Assembly (NCBI GenBank): GCA_044342325.1
Contig: JBIIPZ010000010.1
Location: forward strand, 1-64,000
Direction of reading: 5' to 3'
Origin: Terrimicrobiaceae bacterium
GTDB taxonomy: Bacteria; Verrucomicrobiota; Verrucomicrobiia; Chthoniobacterales; Terrimicrobiaceae
DNA length: 64,000 nucleotides
How positions within the stretch are numbered: the first letter of the stretch is position 1; every line of letters begins with the position of its first letter. The notes below the pieces were generated by a model. That model was given only the letters and a program-made list of their open reading frames with translations. It was not told where the DNA came from and did not search any database. Both the position numbers and the translations under genes were made by a program. This document shows positions 4,439 to 62,345 of the stretch, piece after piece.

Positions 4439-4610
4439 GGTAGGGATGCCGCGCCGCCGGCGTCCCAAGATTCAGGAGCGCCAGCGGCGTTTCTTCTGGG
4501 TGCAAAGGCGGCTCCGCCGCGCAAATGGGTCAGCGACGGCGCGCCGACCCTACCTTGCATACAGGAGCGCGCTACCGCGCGGTTGCTGTGGCGGCGTCTC
4601 TATGAGCGCC
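4439..4610. repeat. REP/REPIN-like cluster between convergent genes
   Basis: GGTAGGGATGCCG..CGGCGTCCC ... GCGCCGACCCTACC (4439-4554) is homologous to 61887-62003. GCGGCGTCTCTATGAGCGCC at 4591-4610 recurs at 50176, 52765, 62119 and inverted at 63783. Confidence 0.8.
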
Positions 4611-51109: not shown

Positions 51110-51760
51110 GCAGAGAGGAGCATCGCTCTCGCATGCCCCATTTTTCAGCTGCGAAGCGGCGTCTCTGCTGGATGCGATGGCGGCCTTGCCGCGCAAATGG
51201 GTCAGCGGCGGCCTCCGGCTCGTAGCCTACGCCTCGGAGAGCGCGCCGACCCTACCCTAGATCTACGAGCGCGCTGCCGCGCGGGTCGTGCATCGTCCTC
51301 GCATGGCACATTTTTCAACCACGAATTGCACAATTTTTCACGAATGGGGAGCGGCTTCGCCGGAGATTCTCCTTGCTGGTTTTATTCGTGTTCATTCGGT
51401 CTATTCGTGGTTCAAGGACATCCGGGCAGCAGGGGCGCAGCGCGGCGTTCGACCATCGAGGAGGTTCCGGCGCGCGGCGTGATGGGAACGAGGCGGCGTG
51501 GTGGCGAGCCATTCAGTCTTGGGTCAAGCCGGAGGTTGACCCTCCAAGGGTTTGCGCGCGGCAGCGCGCTTCGTTATTCCGGGAGGGGCATCGTCCTCGC
51601 ATGACCCATTCTTCAGCCGCGCTTCCTGCTCGTAGCGCAGCGCGCGGAGAGAAGCGGCGTTTCTTCTGGATACAATGGCGGCCTTGCCGCGCAAATGGGT
51701 CAGCGGCGGCCTCCGGCTCGTAGCCTACGCCTCGGAGAGCGCGCCGACCCTACCTTGGAT
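51110..51760. repeat. Mosaic REP block with an 80-bp perfect direct repeat (51177-51256 = 51675-51754) and the 96-bp element (51317-51412)
   Basis: Direct comparison of the copies. Confidence 0.9.
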
Positions 51761-51800
51761 GAACGAGGGCTCTCCGCGCAGGACCGCCTGGCGGAAATCC

Positions 51801-52562
51801 TCACAGCGGCTTATGCGGCTCGGCAAGAGCTACTCCCTGAATCAGCAATTCATCGACCAGCATCTCGGCACTGAGGCCGGCGCGTGGTAAATAATATTCA
51901 TTAGGGTGCGCTCCGAGAAATACATTCAATGTTTCAGGAGCCACGCCGTCCACTTGCTCATCAATGAGAACATTTCCGTTATCGCTGATTTTCAAGTTAC
52001 TTCCATCTCCACCTGCATCGGTTTTTACCACCACGGCTATGTGATGCCATTGCTCGTCGAGAAGATCGCTGGCTACGGATTTAGTGAACCACTTGGAGGT
52101 TCCCAACTTGAACATCGAATTTAATTTTCCGGCTTGGTCCACTTGGAGCCCAATGCATAGCGCTTTCTCATCCTGCCCGCCCGGGTTTAAGATGCAACCG
52201 ATATGACCGGGCCCTGAAAGTTTGACCCAAAAGCTCACAGTGAATTCCGCCTCCGCCAACTTAATTCCAGAAGTGGATAAAGTATTCTCGGGTTTGAGGG
52301 AGAGTGCCTGCCCGAGATTGGAAGGGCCAGATGCAAAAACGGGCTCAGCAGGCGAACGATTGGACCCGCTCTCCGTGGGGGTTTCCAGAGCGTCAAGTTT
52401 AAGACGCCCGCTATCGCCTTCGAGACTTCCATCAAAACTCCAATAACTGAGCGTATCCCCATTCGGCGTATTGGCGCGCGGCCAGGAGAATTCGGCATGA
52501 GAGACGCTGAGAGAGAGAAGCGAGGCAGCCAGTGTATTGAACAGCAGTTTGGTGGATTTCAT
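51801..52562 (-). CDS. Secreted LamG/concanavalin A-like domain protein
   Basis: Signal peptide; YWSFDGS, FTVSFWVK, QWHHIAVV and VDELLI. Confidence 0.75.
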   Translation of the reverse strand: MKSTKLLFNTLAASLLSLSVSHAEFSWPRANTPNGDTLSYWSFDGSLEGDSGRLKLDALETPTESGSNRSPAEPVFASGPSNLGQALSLKPENTLSTSGIKLAEAEFTVSFWVKLSGPGHIGCILNPGGQDEKALCIGLQVDQAGKLNSMFKLGTSKWFTKSVASDLLDEQWHHIAVVVKTDAGGDGSNLKISDNGNVLIDEQVDGVAPETLNVFLGAHPNEYYLPRAGLSAEMLVDELLIQGVALAEPHKPL

Positions 52563-52699
52563 AGGGTTTTTTGAGGGTTGCAGATTTAAGATTTTGAATT
52601 CTGATCTGAGCGTGTCAATAAAAACTTAAGGTTCAAAATAAAAATCAATGTATTTTCAGTGGAGTCCGGCAAATGGGAATGCTCAGCTTGGGATGCTCG

Positions 52700-53025
52700 A
52701 CAAAATCATGGATGGCAGAATCATTTTTTTGATGGAGCGGGCGCGCTGCCGCGCGATTGCTGAAGCGGCGTCTCTATGAGCGCCGAGGGGGGACTCCGAT
52801 TCGGCAGTCATAGACAGCCGCTACAAACCCGCGCGGCAGAGCGCTATTCGTGTTCATTCGGGGTATTCGTGGTTCATGGACATCCGGGCAGGATGGGATT
52901 TGGGCGGCTTTTGAGCGGGGTGGTGTCCGGGAGTCATCCCGCGCCTTCCGTGGAGGAATTTGGGCCATGCCAACCGAAGCCACGGGCGTGGCGTAGGAAG
53001 CACATCGCAGATGGCCCGGAGGGCG
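52700..53025. repeat. Mosaic REP block
   Basis: Inverted REP pair 52765-52825, right half of the 96-bp element (about 52845-52875), and 52905-53025 homologous to 62150-62272. Confidence 0.85.
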
Positions 53026-53050
53026 AATTGGTTTCGAAAATAATCCACCT

Positions 53051-53089
53051 TTGACAACCGGGCTTCCATCGTAATACATTCGGTATGAC
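53051..53089 (+). promoter_or_regulatory. Sigma70-like promoter with overlapping inverted repeat, TA operon
   Basis: TTGACA-18-TACATT; GTAATAC-N5-GTATGAC imperfect palindrome abutting the ATG. Confidence 0.6.
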
Positions 53090-53314
53090 ATGAAGACCAT
53101 CACGGCAAAAATCCCTGATGCCCTGAACGAGAAACTCAGGAAATCCGCCGCTCTGAAGAAGGAGCATTTTTCCGAAATCATCCGGCGTGCGTTGACGCGG
53201 GAGCTTGATGGCGATGTGGACTTCGCTGCCATGGCCGCACCGTATTGCGGGATGTTCAGCGGTCCCTCGGACCTCTCCACGCGCGAGGGCTATGGAAGTC
53301 CGGACAATCGTTGA
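53090..53314 (+). CDS. Ribbon-helix-helix (CopG-like) antitoxin, VapB-type
   Basis: MKTITAKIPDAL..SEIIRRAL..GPSDLST; overlaps the PIN gene. Confidence 0.8.
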   Translation: MKTITAKIPDALNEKLRKSAALKKEHFSEIIRRALTRELDGDVDFAAMAAPYCGMFSGPSDLSTREGYGSPDNR

Positions 53315-53705
53315 TGCCGGTCCGTTGATCGGTTGGCTCAATTCCACCGACCAATGGCACAGGTGGAGTGTGTCTGTTCTTCAAAAAGTCAAAGGCCCGA
53401 TCCACACAAGCGAGGTTGTGCTTGGCGAAGCCTGTTGGAATCTGGGAGGTAACACCAAGCCCGTTCACGCCTTGCTCAGCTTGGTTGGCAAGGGATCCAT
53501 CCAGCTTTTGCGGCCTTGGCCCGAAAATCTCACCCGCACGCAGGAACTGATGCTCAAGTATCCCACGATGGACGCCGGCGATGCCTCGATCGTTGTTCTG
53601 TCCGAACAGAATCCCAAGGCGCAAATCATCACCACAGACCGCGCGGATTTTTCGATATACCGCCGCTTCCGCTCCCAAAAAATCCCCGCCATTTTTCCGA
53701 GGTAA
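53292..53705 (+). CDS. vapC: PIN-domain toxin
   Basis: IVDAGPLI, VLGEA, MDAGDASIV and TTDRADFSIYR acidic PIN residues. Start ATG 53292. Confidence 0.85.
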   Translation: MEVRTIVDAGPLIGWLNSTDQWHRWSVSVLQKVKGPIHTSEVVLGEACWNLGGNTKPVHALLSLVGKGSIQLLRPWPENLTRTQELMLKYPTMDAGDASIVVLSEQNPKAQIITTDRADFSIYRRFRSQKIPAIFPR

Positions 53706-53784
53706 CGAGAGTTTGCATTTGAGGGAATCAAGCCTGCCCTCACACGAAATATCTTTTACCGTAGTGCGGTCTCGTGCGGCACGA

Positions 53785-54275
53785 GGCCCATTTTTCAGCC
53801 GTGCTTCCGGCTCGTAGCGCAGCGCGCGGAGAGAAGCGGCGTAGATGCTGTAAGTGTCGTGGCATTCGCCTACGACACTTACACCAACCCCTCAAAAAAC
53901 AACGGGGTGCTCGACGCAACGCTTACGTAGAGCCTACGGGTCGGAGAGAAGCGGCGTGCCAGGGGAGCATGACCGTCTCGGTCGTGTAGGCGCAAGGCGG
54001 GGTTCGCCCATCGATGAGGTTGCGGCGCGAGTGCCTTTCACGCTCGAGACGAGCGTGCTCCCCTCTTTCGCGCTGCCGCGCGCTTCGTTACTTGGGAGGG
54101 TCGACCTCCGGCTTGACCCATTTTTCAGCCGCGCTTCCGGCTCGTAGCGCAGCGCGCGGAGAGAAGCGGCGTTTCTGCGGGAGTTGCTTTGCGCGTTTTG
54201 CGGGGTGGTGTCTGGGAGTCATTCAGCGCCTTCCGAGGAGGAATTTGGGTCAAGCCGGAGGTTGACCCTCCCGGG
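53785..54275. repeat. Mosaic REP block between convergent vapC and surface-protein genes
   Basis: Duplicated CATTTTTCAGCCG..GGAGAGAAGCGGCGT (about 53789 and 54119), GGAG-type REP pair 53964-54061, and inverted GGGAGGGTC(G/A)ACCTCCGGCTTGACC pair 54094-54272. Confidence 0.85.
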
Positions 54276-57200
54276 GTTTTCGATTGGCTCGGCGACGGAG
54301 GTATTGGACGGCGAGGCCTGCGAGGAGGGCGAGGGCGTAGAAGTAGGTTTCGGTTTCGGGGACGGCTATGATGAGGCTGCCATTACCTTCGAAGCCACTG
54401 ACTTCAAATCCGTTGCCGATGAATCCACTGCCACTGCCGCTGTAGAAGCTGATTTTTGCGAGGTCGGAAGCCACGAGGGAATTATCGGTAAAGACAAGGT
54501 TGCTGGGGGTTAGATAATTGTTGACTGGATCACCGTAGCGCGGCACTCCGCTCCAGTTCCAGATGGCCAGGTTGGCGCTGGGCGCCCAGGAGCCTACGCC
54601 GCTGAAGCGAAGCGTGCCGACGAAGCCGGCAAAGTCGATGATGGAATCCTTGCTCAGGGTGAGGAGTCCGACATTCTCGTTGAATGTTCCACTTACGGCC
54701 AGGGTGCCGCCATCGAGGTTGATATTTGTGCTGTCGCTGACGGCGTTTGCGGCGGTGACGAGGAAGGAGCCGCCGGTGACATTGACTACTGTGGTGTTGC
54801 CCATGGCTCCGGTTGCGGCGGCTTGGAGCGTGCCGCTGTTGACCGTGGTGCTGCCGGTGAAGCCACTGTTGTCGCCAGTGAGGACTTGGGTGCTGGCGCC
54901 GTCTTTCACGAGGGCGGAGTTGGAGGCGCCTGTGATGCGGCCGGCGTAGGTGGTGCTGCCGCTTGTCGCGTTGATTGTGAGGGTATTGGCGCCGAGGGTG
55001 ACATTTGAGCTGGCGGCGCCGGTGAGCGAGGCCACGGATTGGCTGGCGCCGAGGGCGAGTGTGGAGCTGCCGGTGCCGGTGGTGTCGATCGAGATGGCGG
55101 ATCGGCCGTTGGCTGTCGGCAGGGCGTTGGTGACATTGGCGTTCAGGGTGGCACCGTTGATGATGCTGGTTGGGCCGTTGTAGGTATTCGCGTTGGCGAG
55201 CGTGGTGGTGCCGCCGTCGATGACGAGGTCGGAGTTGGCAGAGGAGCCACTGATGACGCCGCTCACCGTGATGCCGTTGCTACCGCCTGCGAGGGTGAGT
55301 GTGGTGCCGTTTTTGCTGAGGGCGCCGGAGAGGGTGAGGAGGCCGGTGCCGCTGTTGCGGATGGTGCCGGTGCTGCCTGTGGCGCCGGTGATGGAGATGT
55401 CGCGGGTCAAGTTGCCTGCAGCGCCGTTGTAGATGAGTGCGGTGGCGTTGGCGAGGTTGACGCCGGAGGTGGAGCCGAGGGCTGAGACACTGCTGATCGA
55501 GAGGTTCCCGGCGCTGATGGTGGTGGCACCGCTGTAGGTGTTGCTGCCATTCAGGGTGAAGGTGCCACTGCCTGTTTTTATGAGGCCGTTGGTGCCGGCG
55601 AGGATTGCGCTGACCGTGCCGTTTTGCATGGCGTAGTTTCCACCGTTGTTGGTGATTGTGCCGTTGACCAGTGTGCCGCCGCTGATGCTGGTGATGGTGT
55701 TGGTGAGGCTCTTGCCGCCCATGTCCAGTGTGCCGCCGGTGAGGCTGATCGTGCTGGTGCCGAGCGTGCCGTTGCCGGAGAGGAGCAGCGTGCCATCCGC
55801 AACCACCGTGCTTCCGCTTAGGGTGTTATTTCTGGAAAGCGTGACGGTGCCACTGCCATTTTTGGTCAATGTGCCACTGCCGGCGAGGATGGTCGAGACA
55901 GAGCCGTTTTGGAGGATATAGCCGTCGGTTGCGGTGAGTGTTGACGTGAAAACTCCTCCAAGTTCAATGACATTTCCATTTGTAAGCGTGAGGAGAGAAA
56001 TAGCGTTATCCCTATTTTGCATATCCAATGTGCCCCCGTTTATCGTCACGTTATTGGAAGCCGAGATGACATTGCCCTCACCTAAACGCAATGTTCCTGC
56101 ATTGATCACGACGCCTCCCGTAAAGGAGTTTGACGCACTGTTAATTTGCATAGTCCCTGTGCCATTGAGCGTTATGCCACCGGATCCGCTAATGACTCCA
56201 CTGAAAGCGAGAGTGCTGCTGGAATTCCAGAGAAGTGTGCCATTATTGGCGATATTTCCGGCCCCATTGAGAGTTCCTGAACCAGCGATCTCCAGAATTC
56301 CGGCTGAAATGGTCGTGCCACCGCTGTAGGAATTGCTGCCGGTGAGCCGGAGGGTGCCGGCGCCTGCTTTGGTGAGGGAGGAGGAGGCGCCGGAGATGAC
56401 GCCGCCGACGGTGAGGTTGCCGCTGGTGAGGGTGATTGTGCGCGAGGCGGAGTTGCCGAGGGCGACTGTGCCGGTGCCGAGGTTGAGATCATTTGTGCCG
56501 GCGAAGGCGAAGTTGGCATTCCAGTTTTGGGTATTGTTGCTGGTAAGGGTGATACTGGTGCCGCTGGTGTTGTTGAGGGTGCCGCCGTTGATAGTGAGCG
56601 CGCCGGTGCCGATGGCGGTGGAGTTATTGAGCACCAGGGTGCCGCTGTTGAGCGTGGTGCCCCCGGAGTAGGTATTGGCGGAGGAGAGGGTGAGGTTGCC
56701 TGTGCCGCTCTGGGCCAGCGAACCACTGCCACCGATGGCTGTGGAGGTGAAATCCGTGCCTTGGGCGAGATTGTTCGAGCGGTTGAATGTGAGCACGCCG
56801 TTGTTTGTGATCGTGCTGCTGGTGGAGAGGGAGCCAGTGGTGCCTCCGTTGCCGATCTGGAGGCCGCCGGCGGTGATCGTGGTGGTGCCGGTGTAGGTGT
56901 TGCCGCCAGTGAGCGTGAGGGTGCCGGAGCCGGTTTTCACAAGCGCGCCACCTGCGCCGCCCATGCTGCCGCTGAATGTGGTGCTGGTGTTGTCGCCGCC
57001 GACCGTGAGGGTTTTGTTGCCGAGGGCGATGGAGGATCCGCTGGCACCGGCGATGGAGGCGATCGTCTCGCCGGAGGCGGTGATGGCACTGATATCGAAG
57101 CTCGTGCCGCTGGCTGCGAGGTTCATGGTTTCACTGTCGGCAAGAGCGCCGGAGCCGCTGAGGGCGATGCCGCCGGCTGAGATGGTGATGCCGCCCGTGT

Positions 57201-60200
57201 GGGTGTTATTCGCAGTGAGCGTGAGGGTGCCAGCGCCTGTCTTGCTGAGGGCTCCGGTGGAGGAGAGCACGCCGGAGAGGGTGGTGTTGTTGGAATTGGT
57301 ATCGAAGACGGTGGTGCCAGAGGAGAGGACGATGTTATTGGCCAGGGTGAGGCCGCTGGCGCCGCTGCGGAGGGTGGCTGTGTTGCCTGCGCCCGGATTG
57401 AGTTTGACCTCGCCGCTTGAGTTGCCGAGGGCGGTGCTGCTGCCGACGACGACGGTGCCGCTGCTGATGGTGGTGCCGCTAGCGTAAGAGTTGCTGCCGC
57501 CCAGGATGAGCGTGCCGTTGCCGGTTTTGGAGAGACCGGCGCCCGCTCCAGCAAGGTTGGCATTTATCGTAGTATTTCCTGTTGCAGAGACATTTATGGC
57601 AGAAGAGGAGGATGATGTCACATTAAGCGTATTGGAACCATTGATCGACACTTCGGAGGTGGTAATGGCGAGCGTATTGATGCTGTAGTTGGCGCCAAGG
57701 GTGGTAGTGAGGTTGCCGGCATTGGTGCCCGCGAAAATGACATCCGATTGATCGGTGAGGGAGCTTCCGGGGATTGAAGCGGTGCCGTTGATACTGGTGC
57801 TGAAGTTGGTATCCACCCAACTGCTGCCGTTCCCGCCGGTCCAGTAGGCCAGTGAGGAACTGGCCGCCGCCGTGAGCCAGAGGGAGGTGGTATTCGATGT
57901 GAGGCTGAAAGAATACCCTGTCTGAGGGGCGTAAGTGCCCAGGCTCCATGTGCCATTGAGACCACTGGTGGCAGTGAGGAGTGTCCAGTTTCCCCCGCTC
58001 GAAATGGAGTTGAGAAAGCTAAGGTTCACAATATTGGTGCCATTAAGAGTTGCTGCACCTCCAAAATTCAAGCGGTCCGACGCGCTGCTGCTCAGATCCA
58101 CATCGAACGAAAGCTTGGCTGTGCTGAGTGAGATACCGGAGCTGCCGAGTGTGATCGTGCGCGTGTCGCCATCGGCAAAGCTGAGCGTGGAGCCACCTGA
58201 GGCGCTGAGGCCAGTGATATTCGAAGAAAGAGCGCCAGCGCCGCTGAAGAGGAGCGTGCCTGCGGTGGCTTCGACCGCGCCGGAGTTGGTGTTTGTGCCA
58301 TTGAGGGTGGTGGTGCGTTCAGACGATTGCACGATATTGCCTGCGCCGCTGATGTTGTTTGAAATGGTTGCATCAGCGCTGCGGTTGAGTTGGAGTGCCG
58401 CTCCGGTGTTGACCGCTATGGCTCCCGCGACGGAGCCGGATGCGACGGAGAGCGTGAGCGTGCCGCCATTAATAGTGGTGCCTCCCGTGTAGGAATTTGC
58501 GGCAGAGAGCGTGAGTGTGCCGGTGCCGTTTTTGGTGAGGCCACCGGTATTCGAGCTATCCATCGCGCCGGCGAAGGTCGCCGATTGGCCGTTGGTATCG
58601 AGAATCATGGCGGAGGCGCTGTTTTTGATGCGGGCGCCGTAGTCGGCTCCCGAGCCGCCAGAGGCGAACTGCATGGTGCCGCCGGAGAAGGTGATGTTGC
58701 CAGTGGTGCCGAGGGCGGCGGTGGCGTTGATGCCGAGGATGCCGGCCGAGAGAGTCGTGCCGCCGGTGTAGGTGTTTGTGCCGGAGAGCGTCCATGTGCC
58801 GGTGCCGGCTTTGACGAGCGCGGTGGTAGCTGTATTTGCGGCAAAATCATTGATCACTCCCGACAGCTCACCGGTGCCGCTCGTGGAGCCCTGGAGAGTG
58901 AGGGTTTTGTTGCCATTGCCTGTGGCTACGACAGCACTCGTAAACCGCAGCGTGCTGTTGCCAGATTGATCGATCACGGCGCCGCCGGTCGTGCCCGAAA
59001 GGTTGATGGTGCGGTTGGTCGTCTGAGCCGCACCAGTGTAGAGAAGCGTGCCAGAGCTATCCCTCAATCCGATGTTGATGGCAGAGCCGCTGCCTACGGC
59101 ACTGTTTACGGTGCGGTTCCCGATCGAGGCCACGCTGAGCGTGCCGGCTGCGATGGTGGTGTTGCCACTGTAGCTGTTCGACCCATTGCCGAGCGTGAGC
59201 GTGTTGTTGCCGAGCTTGGTGAGCGCGCGTGTTGTGCTGAGGGTCGGATTGAGTGTAAAACTCCCAGCCGTGGTATCTACCGCCACGCCAGAGATATTAT
59301 TAAGACTAAACCAACCCGCAAAAGTGCCAGTTCCATTTGTGGTTGACGCATTGAAAAGCGTCGCGACATCGTTCTCACTGTAGTCGCCAGATGCCGCGCC
59401 CACACCGAGGCCTACGGTGACGCCTGCGGAAATAGTGACATTGCTGCTCGTGGGGCGCGCGGCAGTATTTCTGAAAACGAGCGTGCCACCGCCAACGATC
59501 GTGGCACCGGTGTAGGTATTGTTTCCAGAGAGCGTCCATATGCCAGTTCCGGACTTGGCGACCCAGGTGAGATTTGTTCCATTGTTACCGATCGAGCCCG
59601 CAATCTCGCCCATACCGGTGCCAGAGAGTGTGAAGACTTTTGATGATTCGAATCTGGATGTGACATTGCTTGTGAACCGCAGCGTGCCGCTGGAGTTGTC
59701 GGCAAAAATATTGGCCCCCGGTCCCCCGGCAACCGTGATGTTTTTATCCGTTGTCTCTCCTGTGCCGGTATATAAAAGAGTGCCAGGAGTGTGCGTAGAA
59801 CCAATAATTATGGAACCATTAGTGCCCAGATAGCTATTTGAGCCCGCATTTCCGATGCCGGCCACGCTCAAAGTGCCACTCTGGATCGTGACAGCTCCCG
59901 TGAAGCTGCTATTTGAGTTTCCGAGAACAAGAGTGCCGCCTGCGGCAGACATGCCGAAGAGTAAAGCATTCGTGCCATTTGCAGTTAATGCGCTATTGAT
60001 CGTAAAGGAATTGAGTGATGCCGCGGCCAGACGGTAAGTTTGGCCACTGCCAATCACAATGCGCGAGGACACATCGGTGGAGTTGTTTGTGAAAACCAAG
60101 CCACCGCCTGTCATATTAATGTTGCCACTATAACCCATGGCTCCCGCACTTGATAATTGAGCGTAAGGGCTAGTAACGCGCCACGATGAAGCGGAGTTGT

Positions 60201-61395
60201 TTCCTGAAAGTGTGAGAAACGGATGTGACGAACCCAAAGACACACTGCCATTGACGGCGAGATTTCCGGTTAGAGTTATTGATTTTGAGCTTGTTCCTTG
60301 CAAAGTCAAGGCCGAGGTTGCTCCAGCGAGGGATGAGATGTCGCCACTGAAGGTGGAGGAATTTGAGGAGAGAGAGATCGTCTGGCTCCCATTTCCGAGA
60401 AAGATTCTGTTTGATATGGTGGTTACATCTGACCGGTTGACGATAAGCGTGCCGGAATTGATCGTGATATTACTGCTGGCCGAGATGCTGCCCGTCGCGC
60501 CATTATTACCAAGTTGCAGCGTGCCGGCGTTGATGGTAGTGGCTCCGGTGTAGGTGCTGGCACCAGTGAGGATCAGGCTGTTGGATCCTGTCTTGGTGAG
60601 GCCCAGAGCGCCCTGTGCGGTGTTGCCGAGGTTCGCCGTGTAGGTGCGGCTTGCCGTGGTGGTATCAAAGCCGATTGCTGAATCGGCCGCAAAATTCGTC
60701 GTGCCGAGCATGGTGGTGATGTTTGCATCCGTTACGGCATTGTAAACGGCGAGAGAAGCCCCGCCGGCTACGGAGTATCCGCCATTTGTGCTCCACGAAG
60801 GCAGAGCGGAGGTGCTGGTAATGGAAAGCACACCCGCGCTAACCGTGGTGCCACCGCTATAGGTATTCGCGCCGGAGAGAACAAGCGTGCCGGTGCCTTC
60901 CTTAGTGAGACCGAAATTAGTGCCGGTGATGATGCCGCCGACCGTGAGGGCGTTTGTTGAGTTGTTGCTCCAAGTTTGGTTCGCAGCGAGAGCGAATATT
61001 GCGCTCCCTGTGCTTACCGCGCCAGCTCCGGCAGCAACCTCAATACCCATATTCACACCGCCAGTGGAAACACCGCTCAGCGTGATCGTATTTGAGCCGC
61101 TCCCAAAAGTGAGAGCCCCGCTGCTGGAACCAATGTATAGTTTTCCGAAAGCCGCATTGGCTGTAGCGCTAGGCGCATTTGTGTATGTGGCATTATTAAA
61201 ATTGCCGGTGAATGTGGCACTGGGTGTCGTGTTAGGGGTCCAGCTTGTATTTGTCCCAATTGCTGTTGAGCTATTGTTCCAATCGGCCGATGTCTGCGCC
61301 CGCGCATCAGGCACGAACGCCACGCCCGCCGCGAGTGCGAGCAACACCGCGATACGAATCCGGATGCGGGATGAGAGTGGTGAGTGTGTATTCAT
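54250..61395 (-). CDS. Giant surface protein with autotransporter-associated beta-strand repeats and a PEP-CTERM-like sorting signal
   Basis: About 18 LxKxGxGTLxLxxxNTYxGxTxxxxGxL repeats; signal peptide after ATG 61395; C-terminal AVPETETY + TM helix + RRRANRK; no beta-barrel. Confidence 0.88.
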   Translation of the reverse strand: MNTHSPLSSRIRIRIAVLLALAAGVAFVPDARAQTSADWNNSSTAIGTNTSWTPNTTPSATFTGNFNNATYTNAPSATANAAFGKLYIGSSSGALTFGSGSNTITLSGVSTGGVNMGIEVAAGAGAVSTGSAIFALAANQTWSNNSTNALTVGGIITGTNFGLTKEGTGTLVLSGANTYSGGTTVSAGVLSITSTSALPSWSTNGGYSVAGGASLAVYNAVTDANITTMLGTTNFAADSAIGFDTTTASRTYTANLGNTAQGALGLTKTGSNSLILTGASTYTGATTINAGTLQLGNNGATGSISASSNITINSGTLIVNRSDVTTISNRIFLGNGSQTISLSSNSSTFSGDISSLAGATSALTLQGTSSKSITLTGNLAVNGSVSLGSSHPFLTLSGNNSASSWRVTSPYAQLSSAGAMGYSGNINMTGGGLVFTNNSTDVSSRIVIGSGQTYRLAAASLNSFTINSALTANGTNALLFGMSAAGGTLVLGNSNSSFTGAVTIQSGTLSVAGIGNAGSNSYLGTNGSIIIGSTHTPGTLLYTGTGETTDKNITVAGGPGANIFADNSSGTLRFTSNVTSRFESSKVFTLSGTGMGEIAGSIGNNGTNLTWVAKSGTGIWTLSGNNTYTGATIVGGGTLVFRNTAARPTSSNVTISAGVTVGLGVGAASGDYSENDVATLFNASTTNGTGTFAGWFSLNNISGVAVDTTAGSFTLNPTLSTTRALTKLGNNTLTLGNGSNSYSGNTTIAAGTLSVASIGNRTVNSAVGSGSAINIGLRDSSGTLLYTGAAQTTNRTINLSGTTGGAVIDQSGNSTLRFTSAVVATGNGNKTLTLQGSTSGTGELSGVINDFAANTATTALVKAGTGTWTLSGTNTYTGGTTLSAGILGINATAALGTTGNITFSGGTMQFASGGSGADYGARIKNSASAMILDTNGQSATFAGAMDSSNTGGLTKNGTGTLTLSAANSYTGGTTINGGTLTLSVASGSVAGAIAVNTGAALQLNRSADATISNNISGAGNIVQSSERTTTLNGTNTNSGAVEATAGTLLFSGAGALSSNITGLSASGGSTLSFADGDTRTITLGSSGISLSTAKLSFDVDLSSSASDRLNFGGAATLNGTNIVNLSFLNSISSGGNWTLLTATSGLNGTWSLGTYAPQTGYSFSLTSNTTSLWLTAAASSSLAYWTGGNGSSWVDTNFSTSINGTASIPGSSLTDQSDVIFAGTNAGNLTTTLGANYSINTLAITTSEVSINGSNTLNVTSSSSSAINVSATGNTTINANLAGAGAGLSKTGNGTLILGGSNSYASGTTISSGTVVVGSSTALGNSSGEVKLNPGAGNTATLRSGASGLTLANNIVLSSGTTVFDTNSNNTTLSGVLSSTGALSKTGAGTLTLTANNTHTGGITISAGGIALSGSGALADSETMNLAASGTSFDISAITASGETIASIAGASGSSIALGNKTLTVGGDNTSTTFSGSMGGAGGALVKTGSGTLTLTGGNTYTGTTTITAGGLQIGNGGTTGSLSTSSTITNNGVLTFNRSNNLAQGTDFTSTAIGGSGSLAQSGTGNLTLSSANTYSGGTTLNSGTLVLNNSTAIGTGALTINGGTLNNTSGTSITLTSNNTQNWNANFAFAGTNDLNLGTGTVALGNSASRTITLTSGNLTVGGVISGASSSLTKAGAGTLRLTGSNSYSGGTTISAGILEIAGSGTLNGAGNIANNGTLLWNSSSTLAFSGVISGSGGITLNGTGTMQINSASNSFTGGVVINAGTLRLGEGNVISASNNVTINGGTLDMQNRDNAISLLTLTNGNVIELGGVFTSTLTATDGYILQNGSVSTILAGSGTLTKNGSGTVTLSRNNTLSGSTVVADGTLLLSGNGTLGTSTISLTGGTLDMGGKSLTNTITSISGGTLVNGTITNNGGNYAMQNGTVSAILAGTNGLIKTGSGTFTLNGSNTYSGATTISAGNLSISSVSALGSTSGVNLANATALIYNGAAGNLTRDISITGATGSTGTIRNSGTGLLTLSGALSKNGTTLTLAGGSNGITVSGVISGSSANSDLVIDGGTTTLANANTYNGPTSIINGATLNANVTNALPTANGRSAISIDTTGTGSSTLALGASQSVASLTGAASSNVTLGANTLTINATSGSTTYAGRITGASNSALVKDGASTQVLTGDNSGFTGSTTVNSGTLQAAATGAMGNTTVVNVTGGSFLVTAANAVSDSTNINLDGGTLAVSGTFNENVGLLTLSKDSIIDFAGFVGTLRFSGVGSWAPSANLAIWNWSGVPRYGDPVNNYLTPSNLVFTDNSLVASDLAKISFYSGSGSGFIGNGFEVSGFEGNGSLIIAVPETETYFYALALLAGLAVQYLRRRANRKPREGQPPA

Positions 61396-61799
61396 AGGGA
61401 GGCAGGAGCTGGTATGGGTGGGATGGGATTCGGAATGAAAGTCGGAAATCCACGGGACGAAAGCGCCAAGGCGGCCACGCTGGGAATCCCTACCCCGCCC
61501 GCAAAGCGGCTCAGCGAGGCCCGTGACGAGGCGATGGGTGTTTGTGGAAGGGAGAAATTTCATTGGGAGAAACTTTATTATTTATTTTTATAAACAAAGC
61601 AGAACATTTGATTGACCGCAACCGAAAGTCAAATTTTTTTTAAAGTTTTTCTTTCCAAACAGTCGATAGCCACAAAAATTTTTGCATAGTAATTTTTTTC
61701 AAGGACTTAAAAAAATCATTTCTCTTTATACAAAAAGGGTTATTCCGCCAGTAGAGAGCTACAGGATCGCTTAATCATGAAAAATCCGCGCCGCGAAGG

Positions 61800-62345
61800 T
61801 TCAACAGAATGATGGATGACAGAATCATTTTTTAGGGGTGTGGCGCGCTGCCGCGCGAGTCCTGTAGCGGCGTCTCTTAATCCCATGGTAGGGATGTCGC
61901 GCCGTCGACGTCCCAAGTTTCAGCTGCGAAGCAGCGTTTCTGCTGGAGATGCAATGGCGGCCTTGCCGCGCAAATGGGTCAGCGGCGGCGCGCCGACCCT
62001 ACCCTTTGATGCACGAGCGCACGGCGTGGCTTGACCATCGATGAGGTTGCGGCGCGAGTGTCTTACACGGTCGAGACGACCGTGCTCCTCTCTTTCGCGC
62101 TGCCGCGCGAGTCCTGTAGCGGCGTCTCTATGAGCGCCGGGTGCGGATAGGGCGGTTTTTGGGCGAGCAGGTGTCTGGGAGTCATTCAACGGCTTCCGTG
62201 GAGAAATTCTGGTCAAGCCAACCGAAGCCACGGGCGTGGCGTAGGAAGCACATCGCAGATGGCCCGGAGGGCGCAGCGAGCAGGGCGCGAGCAAGGCAAA
62301 GGTCGCCCTCCAAGGGCTTGAGCGCGACAGGGACCGGGCGGGCGC
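61800..62345. repeat. Mosaic REP block
   Basis: Modules shared with 4439-4610, 51140-51280, 52700-53025 and 54009-54085. Confidence 0.85.

Follow-up and report, generated by a model that had tools for sequence, protein, structure and literature searches.

The smallest mobile DNA of bacteria is usually taken to be the repetitive extragenic palindromes (REPs), their paired forms (REPINs) and miniature inverted-repeat transposable elements (MITEs) of at least 70 nt, which depend on a recognisable transposase. The small dispersed repeats (SDRs) of heterocyst-forming cyanobacteria, which Elhai et al. are said to have described in 2008, are reportedly about 21-27 nt long and nested in other repeats and hairpins, and they reportedly have filled and empty sites and no target duplication. 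We know of no enzyme that mobilises them, and to our knowledge the activity that moves such "very small mobile repeats" has been an open question since SDRs were described. The palindromic GC clusters of yeast mitochondria (GC42) are presented by Wu & Hao 2015 (PMC4478555) as gene-less hairpin elements of about 40 nt that occur sporadically, are exchanged horizontally and merge or nest into new elements by a mechanism given as unknown. Here we describe a 32-nt double mini-hairpin, hereafter called the module, from a 64,000-nt stretch of a Terrimicrobiaceae genome (the window; positions 1-64000 of contig C78 of the source genome, G000, an assembly of 2.93 Mb in 78 contigs with 56.5% GC). The module is a new family of the "very small mobile repeat" kind, notable for its build as a 16-nt dimer and for its spread across phyla, and we consider it probable that its copies are ultra-small, gene-less, selfish insertion elements that an enzyme supplied in trans moves by cutting and joining single-stranded DNA (ssDNA).

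Cyanobacterial SDRs, as reportedly described, are behaviourally among the closest systems to the module. The module differs from them in being 32 nt long, in being a tandem dimer of 16-mers with two mini-hairpins closed on GNA triloops, and in occurring in Verrucomicrobiota, Desulfobacterota and Planctomycetota, whereas SDRs (families SDR1-8) reportedly occur in one cyanobacterial family, the Nostocaceae. GC clusters are also close in behaviour; they differ in being organellar, in lying in an AT-rich background and in having putative target-site duplications, and they have no sequence relation to the module (PMC4478555).

An earlier note on the window had described 30-nt inserts that interrupt two different target repeats. 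Its five 30-mers, at 51212, 51622, 51710, 53804 and 54134, are exact: the pattern CYTCCKGCTCGTAGC-N8-CGGAGAG has five matches in the window, all on the + strand, and none in any of 100 dinucleotide-preserving shuffles. The paired empty sites that it had reported are also present. CAGCGGCGG/CGCGCCGACC is interrupted at 51212 and 51710, intact at 61988/61989 and found as a variant at 4539/4540, and TTCAGC(C/T)G(C/T)G/AAGC(G/A)GCGT harbours an insert at 51622, 53804 and 54134 but has none at 51153/51154 and 61928/61929. A degenerate copy had been placed at about 53922-53948; there is such a copy, and it is actually a 5'-truncated module at 53926-53948, directly followed at 53949-57 by the right half of host hairpin A (AAGCGGCGT). 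The module copies and host repeats of the window are as follows.

51212-51241, + strand: widespread 30-nt form of the module (CCTCCGGCTCGTAGCCTACGCCTCGGAGAG), inside the GTAG-type REP B
51710-51739, + strand: second copy of the widespread 30-nt form, inside the second REP B
51622-51651, + strand: degenerate derivative (CTTCCTGCTCGTAGCGCAGCGCGCGGAGAG), lying within the host hairpin A triloop
53804-53833, + strand: degenerate derivative in host hairpin A
54134-54163, + strand: degenerate derivative in host hairpin A, within a REPIN-like inverted pair at 54094-54272
53926-53948, + strand: 5'-truncated module (CGTAGAGCCTACGGGTCGGAGAG), positions 10-32 of the 32-mer
51195-51256, + strand: filled REP B (AAATGGGTCAGCGGCGG/module/CGCGCCGACCCTACC), with its GTAG tag on the - strand
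51693-51754, + strand: filled REP B, second copy
61972-62003, + strand: empty REP B, junction 61988/61989
4523-4554, + strand: empty REP B variant, junction 4539/4540
51612-51660, + strand: filled hairpin A (TTCAGCCGCG/module/AAGCGGCGT)
53794-53842, + strand: filled hairpin A
54124-54172, + strand: filled hairpin A
51144-51162, + strand: empty hairpin A (GCGAAGC-type mini-hairpin), junction 51153/51154
61919-61937, + strand: empty hairpin A, junction 61928/61929
54039-54057, + strand: empty hairpin C (CACGCTCG-AGA-CGAGCGTG)
62066-62084, + strand: empty hairpin C
62244-62310, + strand: empty repeat D (..AGCGAGCAGG/GCGCGAGCAAGG..), junction 62284/62285, with filled copies elsewhere in the genome

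The canonical module is GC-rich and gene-less and has a length of 32 nt (range, 30-33 nt). The unit length of 30 nt first given for it holds for the window copies, in which the CCTCC form is without AG. Inspection of the 32-mer revealed a head-to-tail dimer of a 16-nt unit, with CCTCCGG-CTC-GTA-GAG as unit 1 and CCTACGC-CTC-GGA-GAG as unit 2, and both units contain a mini-hairpin with a GNA triloop. In an alignment of 45 distinct 32-mers, a fold with these two mini-hairpins has its stems at columns 6-10/14-18 and 24-26/30-32. It leaves 92.5% of the cells paired and shows compensatory, both-side change in four of the eight pairs, and its covariation score of 0.297 (0.157 when shuffled) was reached by 0 of 500 shuffles; the aligned sequences are related, so these covariation figures overstate independence. 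T-A to C-G changes hit both mini-hairpins together, for example from CTC..GAG to CCC..GGG. The single long hairpin with TCCG/CGGA ends, as originally proposed, did not stand: its end pairing is without covariation support (81.4% paired cells, no compensatory pairs, and a covariation of 0.124 versus 0.127 when shuffled), and it is the two internal mini-hairpins that are supported. The alignment shows this predicted fold of the module to be under selection. The two kinds of insert in the window also proved not to be equal sisters. The CCTCC..GCCTCGGAGAG form is widespread, whereas the CTTCC..GCGCAGCGCGCGGAGAG form, in which hairpin 1 is lost and hairpin 2 mostly lost, is limited to three copies, all in the window and found in G000 only, and is read as a decayed derivative of the module.

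Loose scans of G000 turned up full-length copies, about 23 in all, in five or more host contexts that are unrelated to one another; four of these contexts also occur empty. Genome-wide, the copies are thus not confined to the two contexts of the earlier note, a confinement that had been named there as part of what would refute its reading. The counts for each context in G000 are as follows.

Hairpin A/A' (TTCAGCCGCG/AAGCGGCGT, GCGAAGC-type mini-hairpin): 17 empty, 11 full, 4 partial
GTAG-type REP B (GGGTCAGCGGCGG/CGCGCCGACCCTACC): 4 empty, 4 full, 1 monomer
Hairpin C (CACGGTCG-AGA-CGACCGTG): 7 empty, 1 full (C3:10822), 1 nested (C19:45880-45975)
Repeat D (..AGCGAGCAGG/GCGCGAGCAAGG..): at least 8 empty, 5 full
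Context E: 1 full (C4:2859)

The insertion point lies in or at the triloop in contexts A, B and C. Across all filled/empty pairs the edges agree within 1 nt; the element reads CYTCC..GGAGRG and stands directly after a G. There is no target duplication beyond one ambiguous G, by which the element can equivalently be shifted. G is the last base of the left flank in 71 of 85 copies; the consensus of this flank is only N-N-R-G. When the two flanks of each of the 85 copies were joined, their folding energy averaged -3.83 kcal, compared with -2.77 kcal for permuted partners, and 31% of the joined flanks reached -5 kcal or lower, compared with 16% for permuted partners.

A 20-kb query was taken from contig C70 of G000, and the syntenic locus was found in two relatives, G047 (flanks about 96% identical) and G004 (about 87%). 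The alignment of this locus contains two sites 170 nt apart, each of which is in three states across the three genomes, which represent three species. At the REP B site, G004 has no insert, G047 has the full 30-mer and G000 has a 16-nt monomer, 14 nt being missing between CTCG repeats. At the hairpin A' site, G004 likewise lacks an insert, the insert of G047 is a full 31-mer, and that of G000 is again a 16-nt monomer, with 15 nt missing between CCTCCGG repeats. Because the deletions are in different registers, the two G000 monomers point to independent slippage events. Monomers of 16 nt are found in G000 at C70:34409, C70:34578 and C50:671. For the window's own sites, a 15.5-kb query compared with the 41 genus genomes yielded no syntenic filled/empty pair, its matches being confined to scattered genes and to repeats in shuffled form. 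Logan contigs of four runs break at repeats and none spans a module site with a clean 30-nt gap, which leaves them uninformative on present-day polymorphism.

Paralogous series of the same kind were found in genomes of other phyla. Among the 19 listed copies of a host repeat in G058, 4 are empty, 5 hold a single module, 8 are nested and 2 are cut by contig ends; in the nested copies, the module is interrupted at its first triloop by a second module of the CCC/GGG type. Comparison of loci L183 and L173 revealed at least three levels of nesting. Of the 13 listed copies of a host repeat in G057, 7 lack an insert, 1 contains the module, 4 contain another small hairpin at almost the module's position, and 1 has an unrelated left flank; the module is also carried by two copies beyond these 13. 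A second small hairpin (about 22 nt, ..CCTGTCCCGCATTGCGGGA..) is present or absent in the same host repeats, in G057 (L292, L305, L306 and L309), where it lies almost at the position of the module, and in G058 (L257, L270, L271 and L273). In its TCCCGC..GCGGGA stem it is similar to the hairpins (NTS/SRM) of Ssn systems.

Near-identical, multicopy sets of the module are distributed patchily over Verrucomicrobiota, Desulfobacterota and Planctomycetota. Within the genus, 22 of 41 genomes carry modules. In a sample of the source phylum they were found in 7/401 genomes (6/184 genera), and in the phylum of G057 they were found in 11/151 genomes, 6 of which have at least four copies. Five distant genomes reached via individual loci, namely Desulfobacteraceae, Deltaproteobacteria and Desulfobacterales metagenome-assembled genomes (MAGs) and Candidatus (Ca.) Scalindua rubra, all contain the module, at 16-42 copies each, with no match to the reversed-pattern control; such controls gave 0-1 matches in whole genomes. 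The flanks in the distant genomes are unrelated to those of the window, and the 30-32 nt core is identical or nearly so. A loose-pattern scan of species genomes yielded about 12 true modules among the 120 stretches listed, the rest being chance matches in GC-rich genes, and the taxa that it names are a sample and no census. The true modules among the listed stretches lie in MAGs labelled Desulfobacteraceae, Desulfobacterales, Desulfatiglandales, Deltaproteobacteria, Desulfobacterota and Verrucomicrobiae, as well as in one Terrimicrobiaceae MAG and in Ca. Scalindua rubra. At two loci of the latter (L170 and L106), modules directly follow short runs of a CGCAAAG-like heptamer. Four of 12 hits in IMG/VR, on contigs filed as viral, are true modules; no match was found among PLSDB plasmids or INPHARED phages. 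DNA of the window is also present in lake and freshwater metagenome runs. A full-text literature search returned no paper that names the module sequence or an element of this kind in these phyla, and the module strings were absent from the 12 of 15 supplementary files searched for the G. bemidjiensis genome paper and from four supplementary files of Di Nocera 2013.

These observations lend good support to the core proposal of the earlier note, an ultra-small, non-autonomous unit whose insertion into other repeats is precise and leaves no conventional target duplication. More than five host contexts have filled and empty copies, and to these are added the orthologous empty/full/half series, the nested copies and the cross-phylum copies with unrelated flanks.

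Elements of the IS200/IS605 family are moved by a Y1 HUH enzyme through "peel-and-paste" transposition on ssDNA; they have hairpins near both ends, insert 3' of a short target without duplicating it and excise seamlessly. Seamless excision fits the exact empty sites of the module, and, as would be expected of a miniature IS200/IS605 element, hairpins at both ends are under constraint (the compensatory change in four of eight pairs noted above). The IS200/IS605 target is a defined tetra- or pentanucleotide; the left flank of the module is N-N-R-G with G at -1 in 71/85 copies. No cognate TnpA is adjacent to the module or co-occurs with it, and the whole module is shorter than one IS608 end. MITEs have terminal inverted repeats of 15-30 bp, a length of 70-300 bp and a target-site duplication; the 32-nt module has no duplication, and base pairing between its ends spans no more than 5 bp and lacks covariation.

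Host repeat B is a canonical GTAG-REP, an imperfect palindrome with a stem and a terminal tag (GGTAGGG). The module shares with REPs and REPINs (Di Nocera et al. 2013, PMC3733652; Bertels & Rainey 2011, PMC3116915) its hairpin-based structure, its intergenic position and the lack of target duplications. Di Nocera et al. also report REPs "inserted within" other palindromes and REP loops that vary by up to 27 bp. It is not itself a REP by structure: REPs have stems of 6-13 bp and an unpaired terminal GTAG or CGTC tag, whereas the stems of the module are 5 and 3 bp and its GTAG is internal (positions 11-14), in the loop and stem of hairpin 1. REPINs are inverted pairs, whereas the 16-nt units of the module are arranged head-to-tail. 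The REPIN-like pair of the window (54094-54272) consists of GGGAGGGTCGACCTCCGGCTTGACCCA and its complement (27 nt, 96% complementary) around 125 nt with a filled hairpin A, and the loop of its REP, CCTCCGGC, is the same as the first 8 nt of the module.

Taken as a selfish double-hairpin insertion element, the module would be moved in trans by a strand-specific cut-and-join on ssDNA; this mechanism is inferred. Its enzyme would recognise the element by the two mini-hairpins, in the manner of IS200/IS605 or REP-associated tyrosine transposase (RAYT) HUH enzymes or of Ssn-type ssDNA nucleases, and the exposed loops of other GC-rich hairpins would be the preferred landing sites. After landing, copies would multiply mostly passively with the host repeat. 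Decay would proceed by slippage between the two 16-nt halves, yielding 16-nt monomers, or by mutation, yielding the CTTCC..GCGCAGCGCG form of the window. A further-reaching version of this reading, to which we give somewhat less than an even chance, is that the 32-nt double mini-hairpin is by itself a sufficient substrate for a widespread and so far unrecognised ssDNA cut-and-join activity, crossing phyla, landing in the loops of REPs and in its own loops, and excising seamlessly. That activity may be either a housekeeping enzyme or an undescribed transposase. If true, the module would be among the smallest mobile DNAs in bacteria.

Several observations weigh against a mobile insertion element. 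Module variants in G000 cluster by host context, as would be expected if each host family had received a single old insertion that was then amplified passively; because of this clustering, most copy-number growth in G000 is probably hitch-hiking with the host repeat rather than fresh insertion. No outgroup that shares the C70 repeat cluster was found in the genus, so that a gain in the G000 and G047 lineage is indistinguishable from a precise loss in G004. Over all 85 copies the hairpin-loop target is only a tendency, and the insertion site in G057 lies at the foot of a hairpin, outside the loop. Orientation is mixed: five copies on contig C14 of G060 read + - - + -, and three copies within 17 kb on C2 read + + -. 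Relative to flanking long open reading frames (ORFs), called crudely, no bias was seen, with 10 copies co-directional and 9 opposite. IS200/IS605 elements have a strand bias linked to replication; for the module, the comparison covered orientation on single contigs and relative to neighbouring ORFs, in which no bias is visible.

The search for a mobilising enzyme likewise yielded no link among the families to which the sequence comparisons extended (PF01797, PF04754 and PF01541, in 5-41 genomes each). Y1 (PF01797) was rejected as the mobiliser: 38 of the 41 genomes of the genus have such genes, whatever their module count. Four of five module-free relatives likewise have a Y1 homolog, and none of nine Y1 loci (three PF01797 loci in G000 and six in G057-G061) has a module in its flanks of about 1.5 kb. 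The co-occurrence with HUH/Y1 genes suggested for examination in the earlier note was therefore not borne out, and the module differs in this respect from REPs, which flank their RAYT gene. PF04754 (Rpn/YhgA-like) genes adjoin many module-bearing repeats in G000, and within the genus their association with modules is weak (both present in 16 genomes, modules alone in 6, the gene alone in 8 and neither in 11); PF04754 was rejected as a general mobiliser, being found in none of the five module-rich distant genomes. Pfam analysis of 60 ORFs beside 30 modules in those five genomes revealed ordinary housekeeping genes and no recurrent partner. The SRM/NTS repeats of Ssn systems are, according to Chenal et al. 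2025 (PMC11893778), 20-50-nt hairpins in many phyla, next to which a tiny enzyme cuts, on ssDNA only. SRMs flank their ssnA gene, and Ssn systems are marked by hairpin repeats on the flanks of a small cd10448 GIY-YIG gene, whereas modules lie within 1.5 kb at only 1 of 22 small GIY-YIG (Ssn-like) loci, and the module falls outside the published SRM consensus. Small GIY-YIG genes were accordingly rejected as the mobiliser.

Two genes seen in the course of this search deserve mention. A multicopy 320-aa PF04754 gene (Transposase_31, YhgA/Rpn-like; E 1.3e-43) lies at G000:C40:109342-110304 (L315:1723-2685, + strand) and also at C46:35592, C50:94071, C3:75128 and C50:22; at several loci it is within about 300 nt of module-bearing hairpin A repeats. 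At the C40 locus, the intergenic region is 151 nt in G044 and G004 versus 1348 nt in G000, where it holds repeats and the PF04754 gene. At G000:C5:151-360 (L358), an 88-aa GIY-YIG open frame apparently sits inside another ORF, with the halves of the latter on both sides.

The best-surviving alternative to a selfish insertion element, which we nevertheless hold to be unlikely, is that the module is a structural or protein-binding cassette of mosaic repeats of the bacterial interspersed mosaic element (BIME) type. It would travel only within larger repeats, and the filled and empty copies would be alleles produced by recombination, gene conversion or precise hairpin-mediated deletion. Selection on the fold, as indicated by covariation, would be expected of such a cassette, as would the clustering of G000 variants by host context, and slippage deletions do occur (the three monomers listed above). 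Other small hairpins stand in the host repeats of G057 and G058, at the position of the module or close to it. The search for an enzyme gave no link, and loop variants of GTAG-14 REPs of up to 27 bp are described by Di Nocera et al. 2013 (PMC3733652). What a cassette accounts for poorly is a 30-32 nt core that stays identical, or nearly so, between contexts and phyla with unrelated flanks. The edges are exact within 1 nt in every context, whereas the end points of slippage deletions vary. Copies nested in both orientations require an insertion step, and the distribution is patchy (7/401 and 11/151 genomes).

Improbable, in our estimation, is enzyme-free template switching during replication, by which a nascent strand would leave at a G, copy a G-preceded module and return on the terminal G of the module through 1-nt microhomology. 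Exactly this pattern is seen in the 71 of 85 left flanks that end in G and in the G with which the module ends. Stable C(GNA)G mini-hairpins, like those of the d(GCGAAGC) type, are plausible pause sites, and copying that does not depend on the host would account for a cross-phylum distribution with no need for a dedicated gene. Microhomology of 1 nt nonetheless predicts ragged junctions, whereas the copies examined across phyla share the same edges, and template switching leaves unexplained why the same 32 nt are always copied. It is very improbable that the host repeats are transcribed and that the double hairpin acts or spreads as RNA, with new copies made by reverse transcription: G-T pairs occur at some stem positions (GU 2 and 3, UG 2 and 3), Di Nocera et al. 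(PMC3733652) read such pairs in REP stems as a hint of RNA function, and RNA-library contigs match parts of the region, but those contigs match at an identity of only 90-95% and cannot reveal the strand or prove transcription, the orientation of the module shows no bias with respect to adjacent genes, and no Rfam family matches the module.

The surroundings of the module hold further features. Positions 53090-53705 of the window carry a gene pair, a 74-aa DUF6290-like ORF and a 166-aa PIN-domain ORF, which has the appearance of a VapBC-type toxin-antitoxin system. The pair is found at 90-94% identity in six other genomes of the genus with different flanks, and its sequence context suggests a mobile cassette bordered by repeats. 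On the - strand, positions 54250-61563 encode a predicted protein of 2437 aa; segments of this ORF match many places in G000 and related genomes at 66-80% DNA identity, indicating that it is probably a member of a large repetitive protein family. At the syntenic C70 locus, a 2.5-kb element (G000:C70:35179-37670; L332:1380-3871) is missing from G047:C76 and is present in three copies, 92-96% identical, in G048; it probably represents an insertion sequence or some other kind of mobile DNA.

The module thus provides a 32-nt element defined by exact edges, a covarying fold, an orthologous empty/full/half series and multi-level nesting, and it is a concrete substrate for seeking the activity that moves very small mobile repeats. 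It also matters for annotation: it explains REP-loop length variants and makes intergenic regions that are otherwise orthologous look falsely different. The patchiness of its spread over several phyla is a mark of horizontal exchange of DNA between lineages of lakes and of sediments.

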